A DNA stretch of 64,000 bases from an uncultured bacterium (GTDB lineage: Bacteria; Patescibacteriota; Minisyncoccia; Phycocordibacterales; GWA1-40-21), in assembly GCA_963804975.1 (NCBI GenBank), contig CAWDSG010000002.1, positions 405,015 through 469,014 on the forward strand. Direction: 5' to 3'. Below are positions 5,611 through 62,235 of this stretch, piece by piece. The position numbers were made by a program, and so were the translations under genes. The stretch's first letter is position 1, and each line of letters opens with the position of its first letter. The notes under the pieces are model-generated. The model was not told the origin of the DNA. It saw only the letters and a program-made list of their open reading frames with translations, and did no database searches.

Positions 5611-5954
5611 AAATCAAATTAGACATGCGGCCGTGGGGAAAAGAAGAATGGTTCATCGCAAAAGAACCGATACGAATGGTAAAAATTCTTACTTTCAAAC
5701 CGAATCAGGAGTGCAGCTTGCAATATCATTATCACAGAAAGGAATTTTGGAGAATTCTGGAAGGCAGTGCAATAGTAACGATCGGAAAGAAAAAAATCAG
5801 AGCGAAAGTCGGCGACAATTTTGAAATCAAGAAAAAACAGATACATAGGATGCAAGGACTTTCAAAAGGAGCTAAAATCCTGGAAATCCATTTCGGAAAA
5901 TTTGACGAAAACGATATCGTGCGGCTGGAAGACGATTACGGCAGAGTGAAATAA
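5607..5954 (+). CDS. cupin-type mannose-6-phosphate isomerase (type II PMI cupin domain)
   Basis: RPWGKEEWF...KILTFKPNQECSLQYHYHRKEFWRILEGSA...VGDNFEIKKKQIHRM is the classic PMI/GMP cupin signature. ATGA overlap with the phosphomannomutase stop. Confidence 0.65.
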   Translation: MKIKLDMRPWGKEEWFIAKEPIRMVKILTFKPNQECSLQYHYHRKEFWRILEGSAIVTIGKKKIRAKVGDNFEIKKKQIHRMQGLSKGAKILEIHFGKFDENDIVRLEDDYGRVK

Positions 5955-5965
5955 AAAAATAAGCG

Positions 5966-6068
5966 AGCAAAACATTTCGTTTTAAAAAGCCTAGCGAACG
6001 CGTCGGCGCGAGCTCGAGGAATTTTTCAGCAGAAAAATATCCGTGCTTTTTAAACGAAATGTTTTGCT
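5966..6068. repeat. hairpin-embedded element, variant copy 1 (subfamily B): 24-bp IR AGCAAAACATTTCGTTTTAAAAAGC around core CTAGCGAACGCGTCGGCGCGAGCTCGAGGAATTTTTCAGCAGAAAAATATCCGT
   Basis: Between the convergent PMI-cupin and ackA genes. Shares GAACG..CGAGGAAATTTTT with the subfamily A cores. Confidence 0.55.
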
Positions 6069-6074
6069 AGCGAT

Positions 6075-7253
6075 TTATTTAAATTTTCTCACTCGTTCAG
6101 CCATATCGGACATTTCATCCGTACAAACGACAAAAACTTTGACCGGAGAAAAAGCCGAATTTATTTTTTTATCTATACCGACAGTATTGTTATTTACTTT
6201 TTTATTGATTTTTATTCCCAAGGGTTCAAGACCTTTGCAAATCCTTTCCCTTATGACAAATGACCTTTCCCCTATCGTTCCGGAAAATACCAAAGTATCC
6301 AATCCGCCCATTTCCGCCGCATACGAACCGATATATTTCTTGATGCTCAAGATAAATTTCTGCATCGCAAGTTTGGCGTCTTTATCGCCATTCTTTTCAA
6401 GTTCCAAAAGATCCCTGACATCAGAGCTTTTGCCGGAAAGTCCGAGGAGCCCGCACTCGTTGTTAAAATAAGCTTCAAGCTCTGTCGTATTTTTGTTTAA
6501 TTTTTGCCCAAGATACATTACAGCGACAGGATCAATATCGCCCACGCGTGTGGACATTATAAGCCCCTGAAGCGGAGTATAGCCCATAGAAGTATCAAAA
6601 CTTTTTCCATTCTTAACGGCAATCACACTCAAGCCGCCTCCAAGATGACAAATTATCAATTTTTCAGGGAGATTGCCTTTGGCAGACAGTTTATTTACGA
6701 TTGAACCTGCGGAAATGCCGTGATATCCAAAATGAAATATATCCAAATTTTCAGAAACTTTTTTCGGTATAGCATAATATTTAATAAAATCCGGAACATC
6801 TTTATGAAACGCGCTGTCCGAAATTCCCACAATCGGCGTATTTGAAAATATTTTCCTGATTTCGGTTATTTCTTTCAATGTTCCCGGAACATGGCGCGGA
6901 GCTTCTTCTTTTTCGTCCGTTATTTTTGAAATGAATGATTGGTCAACAATTCTATCCGATTGAAAATAAGTTCCCGGAGCCACAACTCTAATTCCAATTG
7001 ATGAAATATCATCTTTGCTTGCAATAATTTTCATATCAGTCGCTTTTTTTATGAAATACTCCAGTGAATCATTAAAGATCTCCGTTGTAATATTTTGTGT
7101 TGCATCTTTCCCTTTTCTGCCGGTATCAAAAAAACTGACAATCGGCTTATTCGCTTCAATTTCAAAATGACCAAAAAATAATTCCTCCTTTTCATTATAG
7201 ATGGAATATTTCGCCGACACGCTCCCCGTATTTACAATTAAGTATTTTTTCAT
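6075..7253 (-). CDS. ackA: acetate kinase
   Basis: MKKYLIVNTGSVSAKYSIY N-terminus and ICHLGGGLSVIAV...MGYTPLQGLIMSTRVGDIDP motifs of the acetate/propionate kinase family. Confidence 0.85.
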   Translation of the reverse strand: MKKYLIVNTGSVSAKYSIYNEKEELFFGHFEIEANKPIVSFFDTGRKGKDATQNITTEIFNDSLEYFIKKATDMKIIASKDDISSIGIRVVAPGTYFQSDRIVDQSFISKITDEKEEAPRHVPGTLKEITEIRKIFSNTPIVGISDSAFHKDVPDFIKYYAIPKKVSENLDIFHFGYHGISAGSIVNKLSAKGNLPEKLIICHLGGGLSVIAVKNGKSFDTSMGYTPLQGLIMSTRVGDIDPVAVMYLGQKLNKNTTELEAYFNNECGLLGLSGKSSDVRDLLELEKNGDKDAKLAMQKFILSIKKYIGSYAAEMGGLDTLVFSGTIGERSFVIRERICKGLEPLGIKINKKVNNNTVGIDKKINSAFSPVKVFVVCTDEMSDMAERVRKFK

Positions 7254-10029: not shown

Positions 10030-11856
10030 ATGGAAATTCGCAATATAGCAATAATCGCACACGTTGACCACGGTAAAACCACCCTCACAGACGCAATTTT
10101 GAGGCAAACGGGCATGGTGGAAGAAGGCGTGAGTATGGACAGCAATAAACTCGAACAAGAGCGCGGTATTACCATTTATGCCAAGAACACCTCCATTTTT
10201 TACAAGGATACAAAAATAAACATCGTTGATACTCCCGGTCACGCGGATTTCGGCTCAGAAGTTGAACGTGTTCTCCGCTCTATTGATACGGTACTTCTTG
10301 TGGTGGATGCGCAAGAAGGCCCGATGCCGCAAACTAGATTTGTCTTGAAAAAATCTCTTGAGCTCGGACTTAAACCGATTGTCGTTATAAATAAAATTGA
10401 CAAATCTGCCGCAAGACCGGAAGAAGCTCACGAAGAAGTGCTTGAACTTTTTATGGAACTTGGCGCAAATGACGAGCAACTGAACTTCCCTACTATTTAC
10501 GCTATCGGCAAAAAAGGCGTTGCGTGGAAAAACCTGCCTACCGGCCAGGCAGGTCTGAAAGATGAACGAAAAGACCTGCCTACCGGCCAGGCAGGTCTAA
10601 CTCCTCTTTTGGATCTGATTCTTGAAAAAATTCCGTCAGCTTCAACGCAGGAAAATCTCGCCGCTCCTTTTACGGCGCAAATTTTTAATCTCGCTTACGA
10701 TAATTTTCTCGGCAGAATGGGAATCGCCAGAATCTATACCGGAAAAGTAAAAGACGGACAGACAGTTTTTGTCAAAGACACAGACGAAAAAAGCAGACAA
10801 GCAAAAATCACAAAACTTTTCACTTTCAAAGGAATTCAAAGAGATGCCGTGCCGGAAGCCGCTGCCGGAGACATTGTTATGATTGCCGGAATTCCCGACG
10901 CTTACATCGGAGAAACTCTTTGCGAAAACACAGACCAAAAAGCTCTGCCTTCCATAAATATAGATGAGCCGACAATTTCTTTGAGTTTTTTGGTCAATGA
11001 TTCCCCGTTTGCAGGAAGAGAAGGAAAATTTGTTACAGGACGACAGATAAGAGAACGACTTGAAAAAGAATTGGAAGTAAATGTCGGGCTCAAAATAGAT
11101 TTTAATACCGATCCGATCACAGTTTACGGCAGAGGCGAACTTCACATCGCAATCTTGATAGAAAATATGCGCCGAGAAGGTTTTGAGCTTCAGGTTTCCC
11201 AACCGCAAGCAATTATTAAAGAAATTGACGGCGTAAGATCCGAACCGTTTGAAGAAGTCATCGTGGACGTGCCATCGGAATTCCAAGGAACGATCATTGA
11301 AAAACTCGGCAAAAGAAAAGGGATTATGAAAGATATGAAAATCAAAGACAACCAGGTCCGCATGGTCTTTGAAATTCCAACAAGAGGACTTCTTGGATAC
11401 AGAGGGGCTTTTATTATGGATACAAAAGGCCTTGGAATCCTTTCATCGCGATTTATCGGCTTCAAGCCATACACCGGAGAAATTCAGAAGCAAGAATTCG
11501 GCTCAATGACCTCAATGATTTCCGGAAAAGCTATGGCTTACTCGCTTTGGAACTTGCAGGAGCGCGGCGTGCTTTATATTGATCCTGCCATAGATATTTA
11601 TGAAGGAATGGTCATCGGACATGTTTTGAACGGCGAAAATCTTGAGGTAAACCCGATAAAAAATAAAAATCTTACGAACGTCCGCGCCTCGGCAAGCGAT
11701 GAAGCGCTTTATCTTGTTCCGCCATTTCGCCTTGATATTGAAAAAGGTTTGGAGATTATGCAAGACGATGAATATCTGGAAATCACTCCGAAATCCGTTC
11801 GTCTCCGAAAAAAGTTTTTGACTAAAAATGATAGATCAAAAGCCGGAAGAAAATAG
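10030..11856 (+). CDS. typA: translational GTPase TypA/BipA
   Basis: [20 protein letters not shown]-domain and overall BipA architecture. Carries a tandem 42-bp GC-rich palindromic insertion encoding [23 protein letters not shown]. Confidence 0.9.
10532..10596 (+). repeat. tandem duplication of GC-rich palindromic element ACCTGCCTACCGGCCAGGCAGGT, in frame inside typA
   Basis: Two copies (10532..10554 and 10574..10596) of a 23-bp near-palindrome, GC-rich against an AT-rich background. Confidence 0.8.
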
Positions 11857-11885
11857 GTTCCGGTTTCTAGGTTTTAGGTTCTAAT

Positions 11886-11922
11886 AAAAAATCATTCTCC
11901 AAACTTGGAGAATGATTTTTTG
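11886..11922. terminator. bidirectional rho-independent terminator hairpin (typA / LysE-family gene)
   Basis: AAAAATCATTCTCCAA-AC-TTGGAGAATGATTTTTT: perfect 12-bp stem with A-run and T-run on either side. Confidence 0.75.
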
Positions 11923-11924
11923 TT

Positions 11925-12524
11925 TTAAAATACGTTTAATAAAGTTTTTATACCTAGTATCATAAGTACAATGGCAAGAATTTTAAAAGTAATGCTTACC
12001 AGATTTTTCTTTTCTAAAACTGGACGGAATTTAAAGAATACAAAAGCCAGCAATGTAGTTGCTAAGAGCCAAGCAATTTCAAATATAAACAGAAAAATGA
12101 ATTTTCCGCCAATAAGAACGCTGTCCAGTATTAAGGCCTTCGGAATTCCCACGGCTATCCAAAAGATCCAATAACCGCTGTTTAGAGCCGTTAAAATTAT
12201 GATCTGATAAAAAGTGAGAATCTGTTTTGATTCGATATTTATTTTTTCTATTTTCCAAACCTTGGAAGCCAGCCAAAAAAGAACGATTGCCCCGCCAATT
12301 GAAATGATCTGTATGGCAATTTTTGACAGACCGATCTTGTAAACAATATAAATGGCCAAAAAAGCGCCGACAGTTTCGGCAATCAGAGCCAAAAAAACAA
12401 TCCTCATTCCCTTTCGGAAACTGCTATTTAAAATCTCAGCAAACGTTCCTGTAAGAATCGGGCCGGGAGTGGCTCCGCCGATCAATCCCAAAAGAAAAGC
12501 TTCAAATAATGAACCTATGACCAT
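11925..12524 (-). CDS. LysE/RhtB-family amino-acid exporter-like membrane protein
   Basis: Multi-TM protein with GPILTGTFAEILNSSFRKG segment resembling LysE translocators. Confidence 0.5.
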   Translation of the reverse strand: MVIGSLFEAFLLGLIGGATPGPILTGTFAEILNSSFRKGMRIVFLALIAETVGAFLAIYIVYKIGLSKIAIQIISIGGAIVLFWLASKVWKIEKINIESKQILTFYQIIILTALNSGYWIFWIAVGIPKALILDSVLIGGKFIFLFIFEIAWLLATTLLAFVFFKFRPVLEKKNLVSITFKILAIVLMILGIKTLLNVF

Positions 12525-12580
12525 GTTCGTATGATATCAATAATTTAACTAACTTTAAACTCCTTATTTATATTGATAAT

Positions 12581-12614
12581 AAAAATCATTCGCCAAGTTT
12601 GGCGAATGATTTTG
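12581..12614. terminator. terminator hairpin, near-identical paralog of the 11886 hairpin
   Basis: AAAAATCATTCGCCAA-GT-TTGGCGAATGATTTTG. Differs from the 11886 copy by compensatory stem changes (TCTCC/GGAGA to TCGCC/GGCGA). Confidence 0.7.
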
Positions 12615-12628
12615 ATGAAGCTCAATAT

Positions 12629-14084: not shown

Positions 14085-14690
14085 ATGCGCAAAATAGTTT
14101 TTGATATTGAAACAAGCAATGATTTCTTGTATGTCGGACTAGGCGATCTATCCAAGCTGGATTTGTCCGTTGTCTGCATTTACGATTACGAAACCGGCAA
14201 ATATTCCAGTTTCACGGAGGGTACACTGAAGGACCTCTGGCCGATTTTAGAAAAAGCGGAATTGCTTATCGGCTACAATAGCGATCATTTTGATATTCCA
14301 ATTTTAAATAAATATTATTCCGGAGACCTTTCAAAAATCAAAAGTTTGGATCTGATGAAAGAAATAAAGAAATCCCTGGGCAGAAGAATTAAGCTTGATA
14401 CTATCGCGGAAGCAACGCTTGGCAGGAATAAAACCGGAAGCGGAATAGATGCGATTAATTGGTGGAAGGCCGGAGAAAAGCAAAAAGTCATTGATTATTG
14501 CATTGAGGATGTGAAAATAACAAAAGAAGTTTACGAATACGCTCTGAAAAACGGCTTTCTCAAATACAAAGACGGACTTGGCCGCCTGCCCGGCCAAGGA
14601 TCAGGCAAAGAAATAAAAGAAATCCCGATTGATACTTCAAAATGGCAAGATATTGATAATTCAAAAATGACTTTCACCTTGCCGTTTTAA
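14085..14690 (+). CDS. DEDD-family 3'-5' exonuclease (DnaQ/RNase D-like)
   Basis: FDIETSN (Exo I), YNSDHFDIPIL (Exo II), YCIEDV (Exo III) motifs. Contains a GC-rich palindrome insertion near the C-terminus (LPGQGSG). Confidence 0.55.
   Translation: MRKIVFDIETSNDFLYVGLGDLSKLDLSVVCIYDYETGKYSSFTEGTLKDLWPILEKAELLIGYNSDHFDIPILNKYYSGDLSKIKSLDLMKEIKKSLGRRIKLDTIAEATLGRNKTGSGIDAINWWKAGEKQKVIDYCIEDVKITKEVYEYALKNGFLKYKDGLGRLPGQGSGKEIKEIPIDTSKWQDIDNSKMTFTLPF
14585..14599 (+). repeat. GC-rich palindromic element copy (CCTGCCCGGCCAAGG), in frame in the exonuclease gene
   Basis: Same motif family as in typA, leuS, rsmH, lysS, greA and priA. Confidence 0.6.
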
Positions 14691-14693
14691 TAA

Positions 14694-14772
14694 CTCACAT
14701 TCGGTAAAAATTTTAGCTCAAAAACTCGCTTCGCTCAAACAGTTCTCGCTGAAAATTTTTACCGAATGTGAG
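14694..14772. repeat. hairpin-embedded conserved-core element, copy 2: 18-bp IR flanking core GCTCAAAAACTCGCTTCGCTCAAACAGTTCTCGC (reverse orientation)
   Basis: Sits exactly between the convergent stop codons of the exonuclease gene and mltG. Core is identical to the 57934 copy. Confidence 0.8.
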
Positions 14773-14773
14773 T

Positions 14774-15763
14774 TTACTTCAAATATTTCGCGATGTTCGT
14801 GTCCTGTTCTTCCAATGTCTTTGCATAATGTATATTTCCTTCGCTGTCGCTCAAAAAGTAGAGATACGGCGTTGCGGTCGGCTCTATCGCATCCTCTATC
14901 GCGGAAAGTCCGGGATTTGAAATCGGGGTTGGCGGCAAGCCGGAATGATTGTAAGAATTGTACAGCGAATCGGATTTCAGATCATGCGTTGTTGTGCTGT
15001 AAAGATAGTCAATATACTTAAATGAAGAATCCACCTGAAGAGCCATCCCGAGCTTGATGCGCTTCCATAAAATGCCCGCGATGATTTTTCTCGATTCGTC
15101 GGTGTTGGCCTCATCTTCAAGTATTGAGGCCATTTTGATGACATCGGATTCCGGTTTGCCGAAGGTTTTGATGCCGCTTTCAGCCATTTTTATTTTTTCA
15201 TCGAAATTGCCTTTCATAATTTTAATTATGTCGTTTTCATCCGTATTCGGCAAAAGAAGATAGGTATCCGGAAAAAGATAACCCTCAAGATTCTGGCTTT
15301 TAATCAGATTTAAAAATATCTGCTTATTGAAAGTCGGGATGTATTTCGCGTAAATATCGGCAATCTGATATGAATTAAGGCCTTCCGGAATCGTTATTTT
15401 CAGCGGCTTGACATCGAAATCGCCGTGAGAAATTCTCCATGCGAGCTCAATTGCATTTTGCCGCGCATACAAAGCGTAATCTCCGGCGATCGTTTTCCGT
15501 TCACCGAATGAAAAAAGATATATGAATGTCTTGAACCAAAACGGAGAACGTATCACCCCCATATTAAGCAGATTATAAGCGGTTTTTGCGTACACTTCTC
15601 CTGATTTCAAATCGTATGCCGAACCGGCCGGAAATGCCGCAGGCGCCGACCAAAAAAAAGCGTTGAACGACACGGCAACAACCGCTAAAAAAAGCAAAAA
15701 AAATTGCTTCGTAAAAAATCTTTTGTATGGCTTGAACCATTCAAGTAAGGCCTGGTATCGCAT
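14774..15763 (-). CDS. mltG: endolytic murein transglycosylase MltG (YceG-like)
   Basis: N-terminal TM; C-terminal GLPPTPISNPGLSAIEDAIEPTATPYLYF signature of the YceG/MltG family. Confidence 0.8.
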   Translation of the reverse strand: MRYQALLEWFKPYKRFFTKQFFLLFLAVVAVSFNAFFWSAPAAFPAGSAYDLKSGEVYAKTAYNLLNMGVIRSPFWFKTFIYLFSFGERKTIAGDYALYARQNAIELAWRISHGDFDVKPLKITIPEGLNSYQIADIYAKYIPTFNKQIFLNLIKSQNLEGYLFPDTYLLLPNTDENDIIKIMKGNFDEKIKMAESGIKTFGKPESDVIKMASILEDEANTDESRKIIAGILWKRIKLGMALQVDSSFKYIDYLYSTTTHDLKSDSLYNSYNHSGLPPTPISNPGLSAIEDAIEPTATPYLYFLSDSEGNIHYAKTLEEQDTNIAKYLK

Positions 15764-15768
15764 AATAA

Positions 15769-17160
15769 TTATACGGGAAGGTTTGCCGGGGCTTCCGATT
15801 TCTTTGAAGGAACTCTTTTGAGAGTAGGCGTCTGGGAAACAATTCCGCTCGGAAAATGGAATATGGTGGCAAGCTCTTCCGTGTTCATAATAAACGGTTT
15901 TTGGTGATAAAAATGCTTATACGGCCACTGGAAAAATGATCTAAGCTTATAAGCGTGGAAAATACCGCTTTTGTATTCAAGTATTTTGGCTTTGTTTGAT
16001 TTAAAAGAATCAAAAATATCAAAAGAAAAGTGATTTTCAAAAAATGGAAATATCCTTGTAAAATCTTTTCTTGTATCGCCAATATCGGTTAAAAAACTAA
16101 ACATTAAACCATTAAGATTCTTTGAATTATACTGTCGCAAACATCCGATTATGCCGCTTATGCGGACAGAATTAAATGCGTCTTTTTCCGCAATATACAT
16201 GCTTCGTATCATGCAATCAAAAGGCACCTTGCCCGCGCTTCTCTCAAGCGCCGCTATAACTTCCGTCTGGCCTTTTGTCGGATTCGGAAATTTAAAAATC
16301 TTTTCTTCATCTTCGCCTTCTTTCGGTTTTGGAACCGCAGCTTGCCTGACTTTTTCCACTTCAATTTCATGTTCCTCTTTGATATCCCTTGCTCTTCCAA
16401 ACAAAGAAATCCAGAATTTTTGAAAAATATTAGCTTTTTTAATATCTTTTACTTTTATAGCAAGAGTGCCGTGATGCCAAGCTTCTGGTTCATGCTTTTG
16501 CACCAATATCTGGATCCAAACATTTTCGCCTGCTTTTATTGAACCCAAAAATTCCAAAACCGATGTCAATGGATCTATTTTGTATTCTTCTTTTGCATCC
16601 TGATCAAGCCCGTAATCAATGTATGTCTTTATGGGATACGGATCAGGCTGGATGAATTTATACTGGACTCCGTACATAAAATATTTTTCCATATCAAAAT
16701 GCACAGAGGCCGTATAATCGTCTTTTTCGGAAACCTCGTAGATTTCAAGATTTGGATATTGGGCATAAAGCTGCGCCTCAATGACATTTTTATATTTTGC
16801 CTGGCTGCACCATATGAAAAATTTCACTTCCCCGCCGATGGAAACAAGCTCGCACGAAAACCACGGCCTTGTCTTGCCTTCAATGAACGCTTCTCCGTAA
16901 TTTGACGCTCCGGTTTGGGCAAGATGCGAAAAAAATATTTCCATTCCGGCCGGCGACTTCAGAATCTCTTTCGGCAATTTGATTTCAAGAAGGCAGGTCT
17001 TTTGGGCTTCAACAAATTTTAACGTAATCCATCTGTAGCGCAAAATCCAAAACGCGACAATAAGCATCAAAGGCAAAAATATCGGCAGCAAAATTATCAA
17101 CGATTTGATAACCACCGGGAAAAGCCCCTGATTAAATGATTTTATTAATATTTGGATCAC
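15769..17160 (-). CDS. hypothetical membrane-anchored protein (463 aa)
   Basis: ORF track. Two N-terminal TM helices. No recognisable motif. Confidence 0.45.
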   Translation of the reverse strand: MIQILIKSFNQGLFPVVIKSLIILLPIFLPLMLIVAFWILRYRWITLKFVEAQKTCLLEIKLPKEILKSPAGMEIFFSHLAQTGASNYGEAFIEGKTRPWFSCELVSIGGEVKFFIWCSQAKYKNVIEAQLYAQYPNLEIYEVSEKDDYTASVHFDMEKYFMYGVQYKFIQPDPYPIKTYIDYGLDQDAKEEYKIDPLTSVLEFLGSIKAGENVWIQILVQKHEPEAWHHGTLAIKVKDIKKANIFQKFWISLFGRARDIKEEHEIEVEKVRQAAVPKPKEGEDEEKIFKFPNPTKGQTEVIAALERSAGKVPFDCMIRSMYIAEKDAFNSVRISGIIGCLRQYNSKNLNGLMFSFLTDIGDTRKDFTRIFPFFENHFSFDIFDSFKSNKAKILEYKSGIFHAYKLRSFFQWPYKHFYHQKPFIMNTEELATIFHFPSGIVSQTPTLKRVPSKKSEAPANLPV

Positions 17161-17197
17161 GAGTTAATTATAACAAAATAAAAAACAAAAAGAAAAT

Positions 17198-17274
17198 CCG
17201 TTCATAATAAATTTTATACGAGAAACTGTCCGAGCGAAGCGGGTTTTTCCGAGAAGAAAATTTATTATGAGCGG
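17198..17274. repeat. hairpin-embedded conserved-core element, copy 3 (core CGAGAAACTGTCCGAGCGAAGCGGGTTTTTCCGAGAAG inside an 18-bp IR)
   Basis: IR CCGTTCATAATAAATTTT / AAAATTTATTATGAGCGG. Lies between two minus-strand genes, downstream of 17279..18313. Confidence 0.7.
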
Positions 17275-17278
17275 ATTT

Positions 17279-18313
17279 TTACTTTACCACTTCATACTTG
17301 CCATCCTTATTTTTTCTGAAATATTTTTTGTTCTGGAGATTGATGACAATAGTGTTTTCCTTGACGTATCTTTCCTTCATTACTTTGTCGATAATGTCTT
17401 TTTTCGTCATCGGACCGTTCTTTTCTATGATTTTTCGTATGACATCTTTCACCACTCCGCTCATATAGCCCCATTCCGAAAGAGCGTACAAACCTCTGCC
17501 GACAAGCACAAATCTAGGATCTTTTATAAGTTCATTATGAGTTGTAGCTATGTGCGCTTTTTTATTAAATACGGCGGTAATTGCTTTTGCAACCTCTCTG
17601 AAATGGATCGGCGAACCATGCTTTCTGATGACCAGATATGCATAATCCCTCACGCCTTTTGTGCTGATATTCGGAGATTTTGTCCGGCCCCATTCGCCAA
17701 GGGGATTTTTTGAGACCTTCTTCGAAATGTTCATCCATCTTTTTGCAATCTCTTCGGTTTTATACTGTTCGGAAATATTTTCTATATAGCTTAAAAATCT
17801 TTTTATCATTTCCGGCTCTGATACAAGCTCGTCGTCTTTTAAGCTTTCATAAAGTTTTTTTAGCGATCCTTCTATTTTTTCTCTGAGATCTTTGTCGATA
17901 AACCATCGATGTTTGAAATCTTCATCTTCTTTCATCCTATTGAACGGATGGCCGATGACAAGCAAAAAATTCATCTGATTTTGCGTACCCTTGTCTTTTG
18001 AGACATGATTGAGCAGATCATGTTCCACGACAATTCCGCCCAAACTGTGAATGAGTTTTTCTATTTCATCAAATGTGGATTTTTCTTCCGTATAGTTTTT
18101 TGATTTTCGTATGACTCCAATAGCATGGTTTTCTATCTGCCTTACCCTTTCTCTCGTAATGCCGTAAGTTTTTCCGATAGCATCTAGCGTCATATGCTCG
18201 GGATTTTTTCCCAAACCGTATCGCTTGGTAATTACGTCTCTTGACCTTTCGTGGAGTGCGAGCAGTAATTTCTTGACCGACTGCTTCGGCTTAAAACTTA
18301 TTGTGTTCTTCAT
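17279..18313 (-). CDS. sigma-70 region-4 domain protein with C-terminal HARE-HTH-like domain
   Basis: N-terminal ALHERSRDVITKRYGLG..TLDAIGKTYGITRERVRQIENHAI is sigma-70 region 4. C-terminal IHFREVAKAI...DPRFVLVGRGLYALSEWGY matches the HARE-HTH pattern of RpoE/delta. Confidence 0.5.
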   Translation of the reverse strand: MKNTISFKPKQSVKKLLLALHERSRDVITKRYGLGKNPEHMTLDAIGKTYGITRERVRQIENHAIGVIRKSKNYTEEKSTFDEIEKLIHSLGGIVVEHDLLNHVSKDKGTQNQMNFLLVIGHPFNRMKEDEDFKHRWFIDKDLREKIEGSLKKLYESLKDDELVSEPEMIKRFLSYIENISEQYKTEEIAKRWMNISKKVSKNPLGEWGRTKSPNISTKGVRDYAYLVIRKHGSPIHFREVAKAITAVFNKKAHIATTHNELIKDPRFVLVGRGLYALSEWGYMSGVVKDVIRKIIEKNGPMTKKDIIDKVMKERYVKENTIVINLQNKKYFRKNKDGKYEVVK

Positions 18314-24139: not shown

Positions 24140-24215
24140 TGGCCTTATCGTCTAACGGTTAGGACATAGCCTTCTCAAGCGTTAGAATCGGGGTTCGATT
24201 CCCCGTAAGGTCACC
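24140..24215 (+). tRNA. tRNA-Glu(CUC)-like; all arms canonical except a poorly paired anticodon stem (possible pseudo-tRNA or unusual tRNA)
   Basis: Acceptor GGCCTTA/TAAGGTC, D-arm GTCT..GGAC, loop TTCTCAA with U33 and anticodon CTC, T-arm CGGGGTTCGATTCCCCG, encoded CCA. Anticodon stem TAGCC/GCGTT pairs at only 2 of 5 positions. Confidence 0.5.
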
Positions 24216-24239
24216 ATTTCGTGCTAGCACGAGATATAT

Positions 24240-24761
24240 ATGGGATATATAATCACAAACATTTCACTTCCTATACTAATTCAAGACACAGCAGCACTGG
24301 TAGTTTCTGTTTCAATAGGATTTTTTATTTGGATAATTAAGCAGTCCTATGACAAACATGAGCAAGAACTTAAATCACTAAAAAAATTAGAGATATGTTT
24401 AAGTGGTGATTTAGCCACAAATAAACATAATGAGGAATATCTAAATGATTGGATGGATAATTTAAAGAAAAATAAACTTTTTTCGTGTGCATTTAGAACA
24501 TACGAATTAGATAATTCTGAACTTGTGTATATAACAAATTTAGAACTTATAAATAAGATCAACACCCTAAGTTATGGATTAAATATTTTATTTAATGATT
24601 TAAAAAATAATTATGATGTATATACATCTAACTCGCTTAGATTTTTAGATAAAGATCTTGTTAATAATTGGAAAGAAATGAATATTAATACATTAGTGCA
24701 ATTAAACATTCCAAAAAATAACTTTTATGATTTCAAAAGACAAAAGTATTTGCGTAATTAG
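24240..24761 (+). CDS. hypothetical protein, AT-rich ORFan with N-terminal TM
   Basis: ORF track. Markedly lower GC than neighbours. Lies immediately downstream of the tRNA. Confidence 0.4.
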   Translation: MGYIITNISLPILIQDTAALVVSVSIGFFIWIIKQSYDKHEQELKSLKKLEICLSGDLATNKHNEEYLNDWMDNLKKNKLFSCAFRTYELDNSELVYITNLELINKINTLSYGLNILFNDLKNNYDVYTSNSLRFLDKDLVNNWKEMNINTLVQLNIPKNNFYDFKRQKYLRN

Positions 24762-24770
24762 AAACAAGAA

Positions 24771-24810
24771 AGACGGAGCGCGTCGGCTCAGTCGAGTTCG
24801 CGCAAAATTT
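24771..24810. repeat. variant copy (subfamily B) of the conserved-core element: GGAGCGCGTCGGCTCAGTCGAGTTCGCGCAAAATTTCAG
   Basis: Shares GCGCGTCGGC..TCGAG..AATTTCAG with the 5991..6044 core. Confidence 0.45.
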
Positions 24811-25157
24811 CAGAAATTATCTTGCATGACATTTTTTGTGCAGTCACAATTATATGCTGCCACTTTAATCCCCGACATCTCAATAATTTGTTGAGCAACG
24901 TTCCAATATTTTTTCCCTTCATAACTGCATGATATAAATCCATATTATTATTAATAAGCTCGCTAAATTTTCGCCATGTTCCACATATAAATTTGCCTAA
25001 TCTATCCCTTTCTTCTTTCCGCTCACCATAATTTTTTCAGGTTTTTTAACCAATAATTTCTTTAATATATAAAATTCCACTGCTAAACAAATTTTGCGTT
25101 TTCCATGTTTTTCTTTTTTTACATTTTCCTCATACACAATTATATTATCAAATTATT

Positions 25158-45405: not shown

Positions 45406-45468
45406 AAATTCATTATATCAGATTTTGAAAAGTTGAAAAACCGCCTATTTTCTGTCATTATACAGCTA

Positions 45469-47400
45469 ATGAAAATTCTGGAAGTTATTCCAATTTCAAA
45501 AGGAATCACAATGGAAACGCTTACGTATTTTACCGGAAGCGATGTTCCCGCTGGTTCCGTGGTAAAAGTTCCGCTCAGGAAAAAAGCGATTTCGGCAATC
45601 GTCCTGTCCGTCAGAGAGGCGGAAATCATGAAGTCGGAAATAAAAAAATCAGCATTTTCGCTGAAAAAAATCGAAAAGATAAAACATTCAAATTTGCTTA
45701 GAAAAGAATTTGTGGAAGCATCGGTGGATACGGCCGAATATTATGCCGGCTTTACCGGAGCTGTACTTGGTTCAATGATTCCTAAGGTTTTTTTCGAAAA
45801 TCTGGACAAGCTTAAAATCCCAAAAAGTGAAGTTTTAGCCGAAACGCCAAAAGCTGCGGAAAAATTCGCCATCCAATCAAATGACGAAGACAGATACGCC
45901 CATTATAAAAGCATTATTCGGGAAGAATTCGCAAAAAACTATTCCGTGTTTTTCTGTCTGCCGACAATTCAGGATATTAAAAAAGCAACTGAGACCTTGA
46001 AAAAAGGAATTGAACATTACACCTTTACGCTTCATGGACTGATGAAAAAGAAAGAAATCATAGAAATTACAAATAAAATCCTCAAAGAAAAACATCCTAT
46101 TTTGATAATCGCCACAGGCGCATTTTTGAGCATTCCAAAAGAAAAAATCGGCACGATAATAATAGACAAGGAAAATTCGCGGGCTTACAAGCAGCAGACA
46201 AGACCATACATTGACATCAGAAATTTCGCTGAAGCATTCGCAAATAAAATAAAAGCAAAAATAATTTTCGGCGACCTGCTTCTGCGCGCAGAAACGATAT
46301 ACCGATACAAAAAAGGAGAGCTGATAGAAATCGCTCCGCTCAAATTCCGTTCGCTCACTACTTCAAATGAAGTGCTTATAGATATGAAGCAAAAAAAGAC
46401 GGGCAAAAATGATGAGAAAGAAACAAAAAAAGACGAATTCAGGATATTCAGTCCGGAGCTTGAGAAAAAAATAAAGGAAAATATCGAGAATAACGAGCAT
46501 ATGTTCATTTTCACCGCAAGGCGAGGCCTTTCCCCTTCCACACTCTGCTCCGATTGCGGAAATATAGTCAAATGCAATTCTTGCGGAGCTCATGTAGTTT
46601 TGCACCTACCTAGCCGGCAGGCAGGTAAAGCGACGGAGAATTTCTTTTTGTGCCACAGATGCGGAGAAAGAAGAAGTGCAAATGAAAAATGCGTAAACTG
46701 CGGAGGATGGAAGCTTGCAACGCTTGGAATCGGCGCAGAACTGATTGAAGAAAAATTGAAGGAAATGTGCCCAAAATGCAAAATCTGGAGATTGGATGCC
46801 GATGTTGCCAAAACCCACAAAAAAGCCGGAGAGATTGCGGAAAAATTTTACAATTCTCCGGAAAGCATTCTGATCGGAACGGAAATGGCGCTTCTTTATC
46901 TTTCAAAAAAAGTTGAAAATTCCGCCGTGGTTTCCATGGATACTTTTTTCTCAATCCCCGATTTCAGGGTAAACGAAAAGGTTCTGAATATTCTGCTGAA
47001 AATACGCGCTATTACGGACAGAAGTCTGATAATACAGACCCGCGACAGCTCGCAGAAAGTTTTCAACTACGCTTTGACCGGGAATTTGATTGACTTCTTC
47101 AAAGATGAAATTGACGATAGGAAAGCTCTCGGCTATCCGCCATTTTCAACTCTCATAAAAATATCCGTTTCAGGTTCCAAAGAAGACGTTTTGAAATCCG
47201 CGGAAGATTTGCAAAAAACTATAGAACCGTACGAAATGGATGTATTCCCCGCGTTTATTCCGCAGAAAAAAGGAAAATGCGGCATAAATGGAATAATAAA
47301 AATCCCAGGAGGAAAATGGCCCGACAAAAATATTTCCGAAAAACTGAAATATCTTCCGATGAATTTCTCCGTGAATGTGGATCCGGATAGTTTATTGTAA
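45469..47400 (+). CDS. priA: primosomal protein N' (PriA) with degenerate helicase motifs
   Basis: N-terminal 3'-binding domain, Cys-rich zinc-binding region (CSDCGN..CNSCGAH..CHRCGE..CVNCGG), RRG and GTEM motifs. Walker A is absent and the DEEH box reads IIIDKENSRAYKQ. ORF track start at 45433; the Met at 45469 is more likely. Confidence 0.8.
   Translation: MKILEVIPISKGITMETLTYFTGSDVPAGSVVKVPLRKKAISAIVLSVREAEIMKSEIKKSAFSLKKIEKIKHSNLLRKEFVEASVDTAEYYAGFTGAVLGSMIPKVFFENLDKLKIPKSEVLAETPKAAEKFAIQSNDEDRYAHYKSIIREEFAKNYSVFFCLPTIQDIKKATETLKKGIEHYTFTLHGLMKKKEIIEITNKILKEKHPILIIATGAFLSIPKEKIGTIIIDKENSRAYKQQTRPYIDIRNFAEAFANKIKAKIIFGDLLLRAETIYRYKKGELIEIAPLKFRSLTTSNEVLIDMKQKKTGKNDEKETKKDEFRIFSPELEKKIKENIENNEHMFIFTARRGLSPSTLCSDCGNIVKCNSCGAHVVLHLPSRQAGKATENFFLCHRCGERRSANEKCVNCGGWKLATLGIGAELIEEKLKEMCPKCKIWRLDADVAKTHKKAGEIAEKFYNSPESILIGTEMALLYLSKKVENSAVVSMDTFFSIPDFRVNEKVLNILLKIRAITDRSLIIQTRDSSQKVFNYALTGNLIDFFKDEIDDRKALGYPPFSTLIKISVSGSKEDVLKSAEDLQKTIEPYEMDVFPAFIPQKKGKCGINGIIKIPGGKWPDKNISEKLKYLPMNFSVNVDPDSLL
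46605..46626 (+). repeat. GC-rich palindromic element copy (CCTACCTAGCCGGCAGGCAGGT), in frame in priA between zinc-finger cysteines
   Basis: Encodes HLPSRQAGKA. Confidence 0.6.
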
Positions 47401-47403
47401 AAA

Positions 47404-47476
47404 AACAAGCGCAATTAAAAAAATTCTCCGAGAACTGTTTGAACGAAGTGAGTTTTCGAGGAGAAATTTTTTAATT
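47404..47476. repeat. hairpin-embedded conserved-core element, copy 5 (22-bp IR around core GAGAACTGTTTGAACGAAGTGAGTTTTCGAG)
   Basis: AACAAGCGCAATTAAAAAAATT ... AATTTTTTAATTGCGCTTGTT, between the convergent priA and ftsQ stops. Confidence 0.8.
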
Positions 47477-47493
47477 GCGCTTGTTTATATTAA

Positions 47494-48345
47494 TTAATTT
47501 TTACACACTGCAGCAGGACTGCATACAACCCTGTTTCCGTAACGCAAATCAACATAATTTATTTTTGCAAGCGATGCTTTGTCCATTTTGATAAATCCGT
47601 CATTTACAAGCGCCTGCAAATTTATCAATGATTGTCCGAATGTTTTTTCGTCATTGAGCAAAATCTTGCCTCCATTTTGCAAATAAACTTGATATGTATG
47701 AGCATCAACCGCATAAAAATACTCCGGATAAAAATCAAGCTGGCTCAAAGCTCCGATAAAAGCTGAGATTTCGGCAAATCTATGGCTGTCAAAATAAAAT
47801 TCTCCTATCGGATTTTGATTCGTTATCATGCCGAAATATTCAGGAAACGCGCTTATCACCGTTGAACTTGCAAACACAAAACCTGTCTTATCCATCAGAA
47901 AACAATTTCCCGGCACATCCGGAGTGCCTCCGCACCAATGATTTTGGGCAACCCGCTCGGACACTTTAATTTCTATATCATTTAAATTTTTGAATGATAT
48001 TTTTACCGAATTTATTGTTTTTATATCGCTCAAAATCTGATTTTTAATATCATTTCTTTCCAAAAGCAAATAATTATCTGTCGGAATAATCAGCAGATAT
48101 CTTTTGTTAAGCTCCGCATTCACAATCGCCGAAATTTCACTGCTTGATACGGATGAATTGCCGGCAATGGAAACATTCCGTATCCGCACCTTATCCGAGG
48201 TAAGTCCGAGAATGCACAGCGAAATGAGAAATAAAATATAAAGAGCCGAGAGGCCGATTTTTCTTATGCGGCTCAATCTCCTCTTTTTCCTCAAGGATTG
48301 GTTTATATTTGATCGCTGCTGCATAGCGAATTTATTTCTTTCCAA
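47494..48345 (-). CDS. ftsQ: FtsQ/DivIB-like cell division protein (POTRA domain)
   Basis: N-terminal basic region plus TM, POTRA-like segment; typical bitopic layout. Confidence 0.5.
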   Translation of the reverse strand: MERNKFAMQQRSNINQSLRKKRRLSRIRKIGLSALYILFLISLCILGLTSDKVRIRNVSIAGNSSVSSSEISAIVNAELNKRYLLIIPTDNYLLLERNDIKNQILSDIKTINSVKISFKNLNDIEIKVSERVAQNHWCGGTPDVPGNCFLMDKTGFVFASSTVISAFPEYFGMITNQNPIGEFYFDSHRFAEISAFIGALSQLDFYPEYFYAVDAHTYQVYLQNGGKILLNDEKTFGQSLINLQALVNDGFIKMDKASLAKINYVDLRYGNRVVCSPAAVCKN

Positions 48346-50809: not shown

Positions 50810-52978
50810 ATGAAACTTTTAATTGTAGAATCACCGTCGAAAGCGAAGACGATAGAAAAATATTTGGATGGAAAATATACCGTCAAAGCGTCTGTCGGAC
50901 ATATTCGGGATTTGCCAAAATCCAACAAGAAAGCCATTGATATAGAAGGCGGTTTTATTCCTCATTACGAAATCAGCCCAGGCAAAGAGAAAATCGTTTC
51001 CGAAATAAAAAGCTTGGCAAATAAAGCCGATGAGGTCTTGCTTGCAACCGACCCTGACCGAGAAGGAGAAGCTATAGCTTGGCATATCAAAGAAGCCGTC
51101 GGACTGAAGAATCCGAAAAGAATCCGTTTCCATGAAATTACAAAAGATGCGATAAAAGAAGCGATTCAGAATCCTACCGAAATAGACGACAACCTAAGAA
51201 AAGCGCAGGAAGCAAGAAGGGTTTTAGACCGCCTTGTCGGATATGACCTTTCCGGACTTATTTGGAAAAAAATCCGCTACGGACTTTCCGCGGGGCGCGT
51301 ACAATCACCTGCACTTCGCATCGTAATGGAACGCGAGAGAGAAATCCGCGCATTCAAACCGGAACAGTTCTGGGTTATTGAAGCCGATACCGAAACAAAA
51401 AAAAGAGAAAAAATAACTTTGACCTGCGATAAAGAACCTCGCGACATAAAAGAAGTTGAAAAAATACTTGAAATCGGAAATAAAGAAACTTGGACTGTAA
51501 AAGACGTTACAGAAACCGAGACAAAAAGAACTCCAAAAGCGCCGTTCACCACTTCCACTCTCCAGCAAGCGGCAAGCACCCGCCTCGGCTACGCTCCGTC
51601 AAATACTATGCGCATAGCGCAAAAACTTTACGAAGCCGGACTTATCACTTATATGAGAACCGACAGCACAAACTTGGGCGCTACAGCACTGGATCAGATC
51701 GGCGCAGTTGTCTCCAAAAAATACGGGGTAAATTATGCAAAAAGAAATATTTATATTACAAAAAGCAAAAACGCGCAGGAAGCGCACGAAGCGATAAGGC
51801 CGACAGATGCGAGCCGTGAAATCGCCGGACACGCAGATGACCAGAAAAAGCTTTACCGCCTTATTTGGCAAAGAGCTGTTGCATCGCAAATGTCTGATGC
51901 AAAAATATTGAGGACAAAAATTATCGCTCAAGCCGGCGTTGACAAAGAAATTCCCACTTTTTCAATAAACGGTTCACGCACGCTTTTTGACGGATGGCTT
52001 AAAGCGGATCCGGATGCCCGCGGAGAGGATGTTGAATTGCCAAAAGTGGAAATCAATGAGATTTTGAAGCTTTTGGATATTCGTTCGGCAGAAAAATTCA
52101 CAGAACCTCCTTCAAGATACACCGAGGCCGGGCTCATCAAAGAACTTGAAAAAAGAGGAATCGGCAGACCTTCAACATACGCCACGATTATGAAAACTCT
52201 TGATGAGAGGGGTTATACGACAAAAGAAGGAAAAACTCTGATACCGACGGACACGGGCGATGTGGTAAGCACTTTCCTTGAAAATAATTTTGCAAATTAT
52301 ATAAGCGACACTTTCACGGCAGAAATGGAAGACGAGCTTGACGATATCGCAACCGGCAAGCGAGAATACGTAAAAACCTTGAAAGATTTTTACGGGCCAT
52401 TTTCAAAAGATATAAAAGCAAAAGACAAGATCGCAAAAGTGACAAACTTGGGTGAAGCCGATAAAAAATATAAATGTCCTGTCTGCGGCGGCCCGATGGT
52501 CATCAAACTTTCAAAGAACGGGAAATTCTTGAGCTGCAAGAAATACCCGAAATGCATGGGCGCGAGAACAATCACCGGTGAAGAGCTTGAAGGGCCGAAA
52601 GAAACCGGCGAGATGTGCCCGGAATGTAAAGACGGCAAACTCATAGAACGAGAAGGAAAATTCGGCAGATTCGTGGCTTGTTCAAATTATCCGAAATGCA
52701 AATATATAAAAAAAGACGCGATTACGCAAAATACCACGGGAATAAAGTGTCCTGTCTGTAAAGCTGGAGAGATGACGGAGCGAAAAGGAAGATTTGGAGT
52801 ATTTTACAGCTGTACGAATTACCCGAAATGCAAATATACCATAAAAGCAAAACCGACCGGCAAACTCTGCCCTACTTGCGGAAGTTTGATGATGGAAGGC
52901 ACAAAAACAATTCCTGAAAGATGCAGTGATGTAAAATGTTCGAACAATAGACCGGACAAGATTGAAAAGAAAAATTAA
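50810..52978 (+). CDS. topA: DNA topoisomerase I
   Basis: MKLLIVESPSKAKTIEKYLDG TOPRIM start and C-terminal tandem zinc ribbons (CPVCGG..CKKYPKC, etc.). Confidence 0.9.
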   Translation: MKLLIVESPSKAKTIEKYLDGKYTVKASVGHIRDLPKSNKKAIDIEGGFIPHYEISPGKEKIVSEIKSLANKADEVLLATDPDREGEAIAWHIKEAVGLKNPKRIRFHEITKDAIKEAIQNPTEIDDNLRKAQEARRVLDRLVGYDLSGLIWKKIRYGLSAGRVQSPALRIVMEREREIRAFKPEQFWVIEADTETKKREKITLTCDKEPRDIKEVEKILEIGNKETWTVKDVTETETKRTPKAPFTTSTLQQAASTRLGYAPSNTMRIAQKLYEAGLITYMRTDSTNLGATALDQIGAVVSKKYGVNYAKRNIYITKSKNAQEAHEAIRPTDASREIAGHADDQKKLYRLIWQRAVASQMSDAKILRTKIIAQAGVDKEIPTFSINGSRTLFDGWLKADPDARGEDVELPKVEINEILKLLDIRSAEKFTEPPSRYTEAGLIKELEKRGIGRPSTYATIMKTLDERGYTTKEGKTLIPTDTGDVVSTFLENNFANYISDTFTAEMEDELDDIATGKREYVKTLKDFYGPFSKDIKAKDKIAKVTNLGEADKKYKCPVCGGPMVIKLSKNGKFLSCKKYPKCMGARTITGEELEGPKETGEMCPECKDGKLIEREGKFGRFVACSNYPKCKYIKKDAITQNTTGIKCPVCKAGEMTERKGRFGVFYSCTNYPKCKYTIKAKPTGKLCPTCGSLMMEGTKTIPERCSDVKCSNNRPDKIEKKN

Positions 52979-53003
52979 AAAACCGCCTGAAAGCGGTTTT
53001 TTA
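52979..53003 (+). terminator. rho-independent terminator after topA (AAAACCGC-CTGAAA-GCGGTTTTTT)
   Basis: Seen directly. Confidence 0.7.
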
Positions 53004-53047
53004 ATTCCTTTATGGACTTTATGGATTTTTAATTTTATACTGATTAT

Positions 53048-57839: not shown

Positions 57840-57842
57840 ATG

Positions 57843-57913
57843 CGGGAGATGGAGGAATCGGACCTCCGACAGCGGTTTTGGAGACCGCAGTTATACCACT
57901 TAACTAATCTCCC
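57843..57913 (-). tRNA. tRNA-Trp(CCA)
   Basis: Minus strand GGGAGAT..GTTA-AGTGGTA-TAAC..GCGGT-CTCCAAA-ACCGC..GGAGGTCCGATTCCTCC..ATCTCCC-G. Confidence 0.85.
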
Positions 57914-57933: not shown

Positions 57934-58013
57934 AAAGGGCGGCATGGCGCAAAAATTTTCTTCGAGAACTGTTTGAGCGAAGCGAGTTTTTGAGAAGATA
58001 ATTTTTATGCCAT
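57934..58013. repeat. hairpin-embedded conserved-core element, copy 6 (20-bp IR AGGGCGGCATGGCGCAAAAATT around core CGAGAACTGTTTGAGCGAAGCGAGTTTTTGAG)
   Basis: Between rpmG and tRNA-Trp. Confidence 0.8.
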
Positions 58014-58031
58014 GCCGCCCTTACCCCGTTT

Positions 58032-58190
58032 TTATTTCTTGGCTTCTTTGTGCACTGTCTGTTTTCTGCACCATTTGCAAAATTTCTTAAGCTCTATTTT
58101 GCGCTCAACTTTCTTTTTATTTTTTCTCGTCCAATAATTGATCCTTCTACAATCCTTGCAGGCAAGTTTTATCAGTTGTGGCTGTGGCAT
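58032..58190 (-). CDS. rpmG: 50S ribosomal protein L33
   Basis: MPQPQLIKLACKDCRRINYWTRKNKKKVERKIELKKFCKWCRKQTVHKE: L33 zinc-ribbon pattern. The ORF-track ORF is longer; the true start is the internal Met. Confidence 0.75.
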   Translation of the reverse strand: MPQPQLIKLACKDCRRINYWTRKNKKKVERKIELKKFCKWCRKQTVHKEAKK

Positions 58191-60416: not shown

Positions 60417-60458
60417 TACTTGTATTATATAACAATATATAAATTAAATCAAGTAAAT

Positions 60459-60490
60459 AAAAATCCGCGCTTTTTAAGCGCGGATTTTTA
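60459..60490. terminator. hairpin AAATCCGCGC-TTTTTA-AGCGCGGATTT terminating the pilin-like operon
   Basis: Seen directly. Confidence 0.6.
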
Positions 60491-60507
60491 TTTACAAAAT
60501 TTTTCGG

Positions 60508-60810
60508 TTAAATGGTGGCAAGAATGATATTGATGATTCCAATTGCCGAAACCATAATGAATATGCCGATTACTCCCCATATCATATGCTGATAACCCTC
60601 TTTTCTTTTGTCGGGAACATCGGCATTCTGAATGAAAACCATCACGCCCCAGACAAAATAAACAACTGCAAGAGCAAATAAAAGATAAATAACCGGCTTG
60701 ACGATCTGATCCAACACATTCTGATATAACTTACTGAAGGTAATATTGGTATTAGTGCCGCTCGGAACAATAATGGCGGCATATGTTTTTTGGATTATAA
60801 AATCCAGCAT
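60508..60810 (-). CDS. TrbC/VirB2-like small 2-TM protein (paralog 5 of 5)
   Basis: C-terminal MIWGVIGIFIMVSAIGIINIILATI shared with the paralogs. Confidence 0.45.
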   Translation of the reverse strand: MLDFIIQKTYAAIIVPSGTNTNITFSKLYQNVLDQIVKPVIYLLFALAVVYFVWGVMVFIQNADVPDKRKEGYQHMIWGVIGIFIMVSAIGIINIILATI

Positions 60811-60816
60811 ATTGTT

Positions 60817-61838: not shown

Positions 61839-61846
61839 TTTGATTT

Positions 61847-62215: not shown

Positions 62216-62235
62216 TTTTTTAATTTAATTGATAA

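Follow-up and report, generated by a model that had tools for sequence, protein, structure and literature searches.

Four long hairpins at gene 3′ ends in a 64,000-nucleotide (nt) stretch of contig CAWDSG010000002.1 (assembly GCA_963804975.1), hereafter the window, share a nearly identical apex on outer stems that are unrelated from one hairpin to the next. We tentatively read these four loci as copies of a non-coding, non-autonomous and horizontally spreading hairpin element that resembles repetitive extragenic palindromic (REP) sequences and MITEs (miniature inverted-repeat transposable elements) and is defined by its apex rather than its arms. This possible interpretation draws on the recovery of four copies where none are expected and nothing intermediate exists, on a unit conserved over about 60 nt whose outer arms are unrelated, and on the patchy presence of the apex, its presence, absence or inversion at orthologous sites, its occurrence in composites and in stem-sharing paralogues, the lack of a linked gene and its identity across phyla. 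The window itself is a housekeeping region of a Patescibacteria/Paceibacterota metagenome-assembled genome (MAG) with a GC content of about 0.38, and neither Pfam nor the gene annotation revealed a transposase or nuclease gene among its genes. HisRS and TopA of the window are matched at 100% on a 606-kb contig, and those homologues that carry a name belong to Paceibacterota or Minisyncoccia.

Searching the window for a 31-nt core with at most three mismatches returned 14717–14747 on the minus strand and 47430–47460 and 57964–57994 on the plus strand, and a gapped pattern supplied a fourth match at 17220–17247 on the plus strand. Over all four copies, the core was placed at 14721–14747 (minus strand) and at 17220–17247, 47430–47456 and 57964–57990 (plus strand). 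The number of matches expected from dinucleotide shuffles was zero. A covariance model of the 20-nt tip (R1), built from 30 copies and run without filters on both strands, yielded exactly four matches of 40.8–53.2 bits, followed by a next best of 11.2 bits. The preliminary description of this DNA, which had reported four loci with a nearly identical core, was therefore correct on this point. It had given the core a length of about 31 nt, which proved too short for the conserved unit described below.

Across the 33 copies collected, the tip is constant over 20 contiguous nucleotides as C-UGUYU-GA-RC-GAA-GY-GA-G-UU. A C-G pair closes the tip, UGUYU forms a 5-nt bulge, G·A/A·G pairs follow in tandem, GCGAAGC is a mini-hairpin of 2 bp and UU a further bulge; G6, A7, G15 and A16 do not vary (A16 in 32 of 33 copies). 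A covariance analysis of the core, as suggested in the preliminary description, detected changes on both sides of several pairs. The mini-hairpin already recognized there is real and covaries, with R8/Y14 being G-C in 25 distinct rows, A-U in five and mixed in none. Below the closing C0-G17 pair, where U18-U19 is bulged, each of the next three pairs forms in 29–30 of 30 cases, and both sides change at each: the first pair is AU in 26 and GC in 3; the second AU in 26, GC in 2 and UA in 1; and the third GC in 17, AU in 7, CG in 3 and GU in 2.

Such covariation, at R8-Y14 and in the three pairs below the UU bulge, also speaks for a different explanation, namely that the tip is a structured RNA module useful to the host. 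Here, a kink-turn-like loop with an ultra-stable cap would bind a protein, or nucleate or protect a transcript 3′-end hairpin, and in some genomes it would be a stand-alone hairpin RNA; stems would vary since only pairing counts, and the module would spread by duplication, recombination and horizontal transfer. We judge this, the main rival to a mobile element, somewhat unlikely. The order of elements fits the kink-turn rule of a C-G closing pair, a bulge in the 5′ strand, trans G·A then A·G pairs and a short non-canonical helix. However, the bulge has 5 nt rather than the canonical 3 and an extra UU bulge lies one pair below. We also know of no bacterial kink-turn-binding protein common to candidate phyla radiation (CPR) bacteria, Ralstonia and Fusobacteria.

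Several other functions for the tip were considered and rejected. A promoter (TTGAGC-17/18-TAAAAT/GATAAT) can be read in copies 1 and 4 with 9 of 12 matching positions, but dozens of chance matches score alike; the −35-like hexamer reads CTGAGC instead in 9 of 33 copies, and GC-rich versions lack a −10 element. A hammerhead-like core would require CUGANGA...GAAA and three helices, whereas the tip reads CUGUYUGA...GAGU with two helices and has no Rfam hammerhead match. A site resembling that of integration host factor (IHF), TCAANNNNTT on the complement, is too loose to account for 20 invariant bases, and to our knowledge CPR bacteria lack IHF.

The conserved unit extends well beyond the tip. 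An alignment of the four window copies with five Paceibacterota-type metagenome copies delimits about 60 nt that consist of an A5T4 box, 4–5 free bases, GAGAA, the tip, TTYGAG, free bases and an A4T5 box; similarity between loci is absent only from the 8–16 bp that lie beyond it. Thus, the proposal of a conserved loop on different stems holds for the outer arms but not for the inner part of the supposedly variable stem, which is conserved. These outer stems are GC-richer, bordered by A- and T-tracts, and resemble plain terminators of the window such as those at 60453–60495 and 52970–53009. The A5T4 and A4T5 boxes are readable as terminal inverted repeats (TIRs). A TA duplication would be compatible with copies 1–3 and with loci L014, L016 and L018, but not with copy 4, L012 or L013; the ends pair with each other and the boundaries are ambiguous. 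The GAGAA direct repeat, considered as a target-site duplication (TSD), was rejected as a by-product of purine-rich pairing that proteobacterial versions do not have.

All four copies lie at gene 3′ ends, as had been proposed. Copy 1 (whole hairpin 14692–14774, minus strand; tip CTGTTTGAGCGAAGCGAGTT at 14723–14742 of that strand; R1 score 52.9 bits; z-score −8.7) fills the entire 83 nt from the stop codon of an RNase_H_2-like gene (14085–14690, plus strand) to that of the YceG/MltG gene convergent with it (14774–15763, minus strand). Copy 3 (47392–47497, plus strand; tip CTGTTTGAACGAAGTGAGTT at 47435–47454; 52.7 bits; z −9.1), which has the A-U allele of the mini-hairpin and a near-perfect stem at 47404–47485, is likewise flanked by convergent genes, PriA-like (45433–47400, plus strand) and POTRA_1/FtsQ-like (47494–48345, minus strand). 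The remaining two are located between minus-strand genes. Copy 2 (17193–17279, plus strand; tip CTGTCCGAGCGAAGCGGGTT at 17226–17245; 40.8 bits) is the most diverged, with three changes in the 20-nt tip, and is placed on the start side of a DUF8128 gene (15769–17160, minus strand) and on the end side of a Sigma70_r4/HARE-HTH gene (17279–18313, minus strand). Copy 4 (57935–58022, plus strand; tip at 57969–57988; 53.2 bits; z −10.8), followed on the minus strand by a T5 run, is found between rpmG (approximately 58032–58190, minus strand) and a tRNA-Trp gene (57842–57913, minus strand). The preliminary description had given every copy a perfect inverted repeat of 18–22 bp; long arms are present at all four, with lengths and complementarity of 23 nt and 100%, 23 nt and 96%, 43 nt and 81%, and 29 nt and 90% for copies 1 to 4. 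A short-read assembly of the same organism (Logan contig L021, 3637–3662) ends within the core of copy 1. As hairpins break assemblies, copy numbers in MAGs are probably underestimated.

On the upstream gene's strand, a run of T5–T7 comes after each of copies 2, 3 and 4, and copy 1 has only a weak run. From these flanking A/T tracts, a role as bidirectional terminator is plausible for copies 2–4, and the case for copy 1 is weak; overall, the unit in the window probably serves as a terminator hairpin. Our terminator consensus scan admits loops of 3–8 nt only and cannot call these hairpins. The 3′-end location with U-tracts is also what an RNA module would predict, as is the agreement in direction between the core-sense strand and the upstream gene that Ralstonia, Variovorax and Ilyobacter show. 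By contrast, core-sense is antisense to both flanking genes at the two tandem-gene sites of the window (copies 2 and 4), and antisense to flanking genes at L008 and L010, which counts against such a module.

Strand preference gave a divided picture. Measured against shuffled sequence, the fold z-scores of all four copies range from −7.5 to −10.8 on the core-sense strand, which is the better folding strand in each case, in line with an RNA function. Counting G·U pairs on each strand after replacing the tip by GAAA, we found no overall bias (53 on the core-sense strand versus 49 on the other), and strand assignment from stem G·U versus A·C pairs was abandoned. The stems in the window are almost purely Watson–Crick without any G·U bias, which does not favour an RNA module. 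Such stems are precisely what a hairpin requires if it has to fold in transcripts from both directions. In Saccharibacteria, G·U pairs are placed only on the core-sense strand (5 versus 0 at L001, with −40.7 versus −20.1 kcal/mol, and 4 versus 0 at L010), and this asymmetry follows the tip when the hairpin is inverted. In these bacteria, one specific single strand, RNA or single-stranded DNA (ssDNA), therefore matters, whatever the direction of the neighbouring genes. Together with the tip structure, the G·U-rich stems of Saccharibacteria would favour the idea, put forward in the preliminary description, that a protein or RNA binds the loop.

Comparison with syntenic relatives allowed us to follow the four sites between species. 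Six relatives, totalling about 120 kb, cover the HisRS region (L022, L023 and L025/L026; HisRS identity 69–82%) and the TopA region (L030–L032; TopA identity 85–87%); all presence/absence comparisons in this work are between species, not strains. None of these about 120 kb contains a copy of the tip, and the absence of the tip from the same sites in close relatives argues against an RNA module. At site 1, the orthologous stop codons abut in L022, L023 and L025. At site 3, spacers of 11 nt (L030) and 5 nt (L031) have no hairpin. Relatives carry a short plain terminator hairpin at site 2 and, immediately after rpmG, at site 4 (L030, L031 and L032). The site 2 terminator of L025 reads AAAGAAAATCCCGT-TTTC-ACGGGTTTTTCTTT and the window hairpin AAAGAAAATCCG-TTCATAATAAATTTT[tip]AAAATTTATTATGAG-CGGATTTTT; because the outer stem looks homologous to the L025 terminator, the unit plus seven extra pairs looks like an insertion into its loop. 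An element that targets pre-existing terminators, as suggested earlier, is thus consistent with the plain terminators at sites 2 and 4 but finds no hairpin in relatives at sites 1 and 3. Terminators turn over fast between these genomes, so that sites 1 and 3 may or may not once have had a hairpin of their own.

A cleaner contrast, like that in Ralstonia described below, came from the rpmE-prfA spacer of six related Saccharibacteria, whose prfA genes are 77–85% identical at the nucleotide level. In L041, the spacer contains a plain terminator (GCCGCTCT..AGAGCGGC-TTTT) without the tip. The other five have a long hairpin that bears the tip, in sense orientation in L001 and L043 and in antisense orientation in L010, L040 and L042. 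The way the tip is turned does not track the prfA tree. To align a sense with an antisense hairpin, one of the two must be reverse-complemented (score 95 versus 34.5), and hairpins of the same orientation are about 90% conserved over their whole length. Such flips between orthologous sites count against an RNA module. The orthologous hairpins of L001 and L010, whose flanks are 84–86% identical, have an identical 27-nt core on stems that are only about 64–70% alike, and a tip that stays unchanged between orthologous copies with diverged stems is what an RNA module would lead one to expect.

We next consider how far the tip extends beyond these genomes. Among GTDB representatives, the CPR-type pattern was found at 11 loci, eight of them in Saccharibacteria MAGs (four from one genome) and one each in Minisyncoccia, in Clostridia (Pelethocola) and in an unclassified MAG; JGI metagenomes added nine loci. 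The inverted flanks around the core differ in sequence at every one of these collected loci, except that (within one Saccharibacteria MAG) three copies, L007, L008 and L011, share stems, as recent paralogues would. BLAST against PLSDB placed the tip, at 26/26 identity, in 128 Ralstonia megaplasmid records, each with 9–17 such places, as well as in Variovorax paradoxus and Ilyobacter polytropus DSM 2926, so that Patescibacteria, Bacillota, Pseudomonadota and Fusobacteriota all carry it. E. coli genomes gave no match to the tip, and IMG/VR gave none to the CPR-type pattern. A phage origin was rejected given the latter result and the chance-level partial matches, and only those, in GenBank phages. 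A looser 17-base pattern matched six IMG/VR contigs, about two being expected by chance; four are clear hairpins, two of which are of the Ralstonia type. All-against-all BLASTP of 936 open reading frames (ORFs) from 29 tip-bearing loci recovered housekeeping synteny only and no recurring neighbour gene. The absence of a linked protein family and the housekeeping-only window fit a non-autonomous element. According to the preliminary description, the idea of a discrete element would fall if only these copies existed and all sat next to one gene family; copies occur far beyond the window, and no gene family recurs. In Rfam 15, the window at gathering threshold matched three tRNAs only, copy 4 at E ≤ 10 gave only sub-threshold microRNA-precursor matches that reflect a generic long hairpin, and the Ralstonia, Ilyobacter and Variovorax loci had no match. 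Exact-sequence and keyword searches of the searchable literature returned no description of the tip.

It is very improbable that the tips are convergent, with terminator loops repeatedly reaching the stable GCGAAGC, or products of chance or assembly. GCGAAGC does occur in the loops of some enterobacterial REP sequences (PMC2817692), and two of the six viral-contig matches have poor flanking repeats and may be chance, about two being expected. However, at least 30 hairpins share 20–27 contiguous identical bases, the unpaired UGUYU and UU included, and shuffles predict no matches at all. As for an artefact, the one short-read assembly that breaks inside a hairpin is outweighed by the finished genomes of cultured Ralstonia, Variovorax and Ilyobacter, whose tips cannot be a product of MAG assembly.

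In the proteobacterial genomes the tip belongs to larger structures. The Ralstonia tip is part of a composite of about 220–290 nt, repeated at about 85% identity. It begins with a long hairpin whose base is conserved and whose middle varies, topped by an A5 bulge and the tip; a second hairpin (TACTTTCTTT..AAAGAAAGT) and a GC-rich one come next. One such composite of about 290 nt occupies the nasA spacer of R. wenshanensis, which in R. solanacearum measures 22 nt. Variovorax paradoxus CP063167 (L029) has, at 900–1700, two composites of about 330 nt that are inverted relative to each other on either side of a GC-rich central hairpin; each contains a tip-bearing hairpin and several small hairpins whose loops read GA-GCGAAGC-GA. 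This architecture is mosaic and, like the Ralstonia composites, resembles bacterial interspersed mosaic elements (BIMEs). The second hairpin, with a conserved stem, stands beside the tip hairpin in Ralstonia, Variovorax and Ilyobacter (L027 1592–1618, L028 1176–1203, L029 1606–1632, L036 and L038) and is found neither in the window nor at any CPR locus. The 220–330-nt composites of Ralstonia and Variovorax have conserved stems, which qualifies the view that stems vary at every copy.

The nearest known kinds are the REP/BIME/REPIN elements and bacterial MITEs. With the former, the hairpins have in common that they are short, extragenic, palindromic and multi-copy, follow genes or lie between convergent genes, are non-autonomous and form mosaic composites. 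REP families possess a conserved stem with a 5′ GTAG head, whereas the present hairpins have nothing but the apex in common, on unrelated outer stems, and the element crosses phyla; in the nine-copy alignment, only the A5T4 box and the tip align. One study describes REP families as lineage-specific and mostly vertically inherited (10.1101/2022.05.22.493013). The tip, by contrast, is carried by four phyla and missing from close syntenic relatives. REP and REPIN sequences are also tied to a single-copy REP-associated tyrosine transposase (RAYT) gene; no such gene is among the window genes, and none recurs at the 29 loci.

Bacterial MITEs at gene ends (Correia/CREE, RUP and ERIC) are similar in being small non-coding insertions that are present or absent between relatives, and they form transcript hairpins that can terminate or stabilize transcripts. 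Presence/absence polymorphism at orthologous sites was indeed observed between the window and its six relatives, in the rpmE-prfA spacer and in the Ralstonia nasA spacer. MITEs differ in having conserved TIRs, TSDs and conservation over their whole length; here, no TIR or TSD is definable.

Other systems share single features. IS1397 and ISKpn1 in REP loops, group IIC introns at terminators and IS1111-type elements in REP and attC sequences insert at the loop or foot of extragenic hairpins, the mechanism that the preliminary description had in mind; they are kilobase-sized and encode their own enzyme, whereas the unit here is non-coding and has 60 nt, 20 of them conserved. Integron attC sites are folded single-stranded hairpins of variable sequence that are recognized by structure, but their conservation is the opposite, with the stem base (R and L boxes) kept and the tip varying, and they flank cassettes beside an integrase gene. 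An invariant loop on a free-sequence stem, recognized as ssDNA, is known from the nonanucleotide of circular Rep-encoding single-stranded (CRESS) DNA viruses and from the CS-6 loop of ssoA. Such rolling-circle origins are single-copy, beside a Rep gene on a small replicon; the tip is multi-copy and chromosomal, lies at gene ends, and no Rep gene was found.

These origins nevertheless bear on the possibility that the tip is a DNA-level site usable in either orientation, such as a DNA-uptake or recombination signal, a single-strand initiation or priming hairpin or an HUH-type nick site, located in terminator-like palindromes because these are tolerated or extrude as cruciforms. Its orientation is independent of genes, the window palindromes are nearly perfect and Watson–Crick paired, and as DNA the mini-hairpin d(GCGAAGC) is exceptionally stable. 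A conserved loop with a variable stem is also the pattern of rolling-circle origins and ssoA sites, uptake sequences are often inverted pairs in terminators, and CPR bacteria and Ralstonia are naturally competent. We still consider such a site improbable. A density of about 1 per 16 kb here and 9–17 per 1.8–2 Mb in Ralstonia is far under that of known uptake signals, and an uptake tag shared across phyla could not tell self from non-self. In addition, no Rep, relaxase or recombinase gene is linked to the tip among the window genes or at the 29 tip-bearing loci, and the G·T strand asymmetry of Saccharibacteria speaks for a form that is single-stranded rather than duplex.

If the hairpins are a mobile element, as we tentatively propose, a putative trans-acting enzyme would recognize the 20-nt tip on a folded single strand, and below the tip pairing alone would be required. 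In the Paceibacterota lineage, the moving unit would be the approximately 60 nt of A5T4 arm, tip and A4T5 arm; it may have come to lie, or been kept, on top of intrinsic-terminator hairpins and at the ends of genes, places that tolerate a long hairpin, and at the window sites would now itself form the terminator hairpin. A bolder version, which we find doubtful, takes the tip as the recognition module of an unrecognized class of loop-defined elements that spread across phyla by inserting into, replacing or flipping terminator apices through a single-stranded intermediate and an enzyme, or, equivalently, as a new widespread structured RNA motif with a dedicated conserved partner.

Several observations weigh against mobility. 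No TSD, TIR or transposase was identified for the element, and no outer stem is shared among the four window copies, although a unit that carries its stem should leave stem subfamilies. Relatives have no pre-existing hairpin at sites 1 and 3, and with conserved proteins that are 70–88% identical they provide no isogenic empty site for any window locus; the empty-site comparison advocated in the preliminary description thus yielded six relatives without the module and a homologous stem at site 2, but no isogenic pair. The identical core on diverged stems in L001 and L010 looks like selection in place, not mere recency, and G·U richness on the core-sense strand only, as seen in Saccharibacteria, is expected for a functional RNA. 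Finally, constancy of the tip is partly built in, as most copies were retrieved by patterns that fix 17–23 of its bases, and copies found by synteny show two to three tip changes (GAGCAACGCGAG in L042, 38 bits, and GAGCGCAGTGAG in L043, 30 bits). Further independent checks are that BLAST, which fixes no base, gave 26/26 identity in Ralstonia and that copy 2 of the window shows three changes.

Two further loci, 5966–6068 and 24771–24810, had been described as diverged relatives of the core but are not members. Neither has an R1 match at E ≤ 10; the two have only GCGTCGGC and TCGAG in common, in the first case within the loop, and GCGTCGGC occurs just three times in the window. The first is part of a genuine long hairpin at 5944–6090 (z −5.5/−6.6) with a stem of about 28 bp and an unrelated, branched 54-nt loop. 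It sits between convergent mannose-6-phosphate isomerase-like and acetate kinase genes, which abut in L023 and L025, the same situation as that of the core-bearing hairpins but with an unrelated loop. The second is a GC-rich patch 3′ of an unannotated ORF of 173 amino acids, and the fold of 24755–24850 is not significant (z −0.7/−1.0).

Other palindromes and small features of the window were noted as well. The BipA/TypA gene contains two identical, in-frame, GC-rich palindromes of 21 nt, CCTGCCTACCGGCCAGGCAGG, at 10533–10553 and 10575–10595, each coding for LPTGQAG and both missing from the BipA of three syntenic relatives; they are small palindromic insertions of a second kind for this genome, inside conserved coding sequence. 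Near-identical palindromic terminator-like hairpins at 11883–11924 and 12579–12616, AAAAATCATTC[T/G]CCAATTGG[A/C]GAATGATTTT, differ by one compensated pair and bracket a LysE-like gene (11925–12524) that is not at this position in L022, L023 or L025 and that may be a cassette bounded by copies of one palindrome. For a tRNA gene at 24141–24216 (Rfam tRNA score 45 bits), ARAGORN reported a four-base anticodon, CTCA, without amino-acid assignment; it may encode a tRNA-Glu(CUC) whose stem is irregular, or else a tRNA of the frameshift type. The small genes arrayed at 60508–62619, at least one of which matches T4SS_pilin (PF18895), recur as the same array in the relative L032 and are typical CPR surface-appendage genes, unrelated to the hairpins.

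Normally, dispersed bacterial hairpin repeats are recognized from arms that are conserved, and they stay within one lineage. The hairpins studied here share about 20 contiguous apex bases across phyla, unpaired ones included, on free stems, which needs either a partner common to the phyla, be it a protein, an RNA or an enzyme, or a non-coding 60-nt unit that spreads actively by horizontal transfer. Terminator predictors with a limit on loop size would overlook hairpins of this kind, which also break short-read assemblies. Culturable Ralstonia, with 9–17 copies per megaplasmid, makes the question directly testable. Whichever it is, the answer would be new to terminator biology and to research on the CPR mobilome, the non-coding DNA of these bacteria being almost unexplored.

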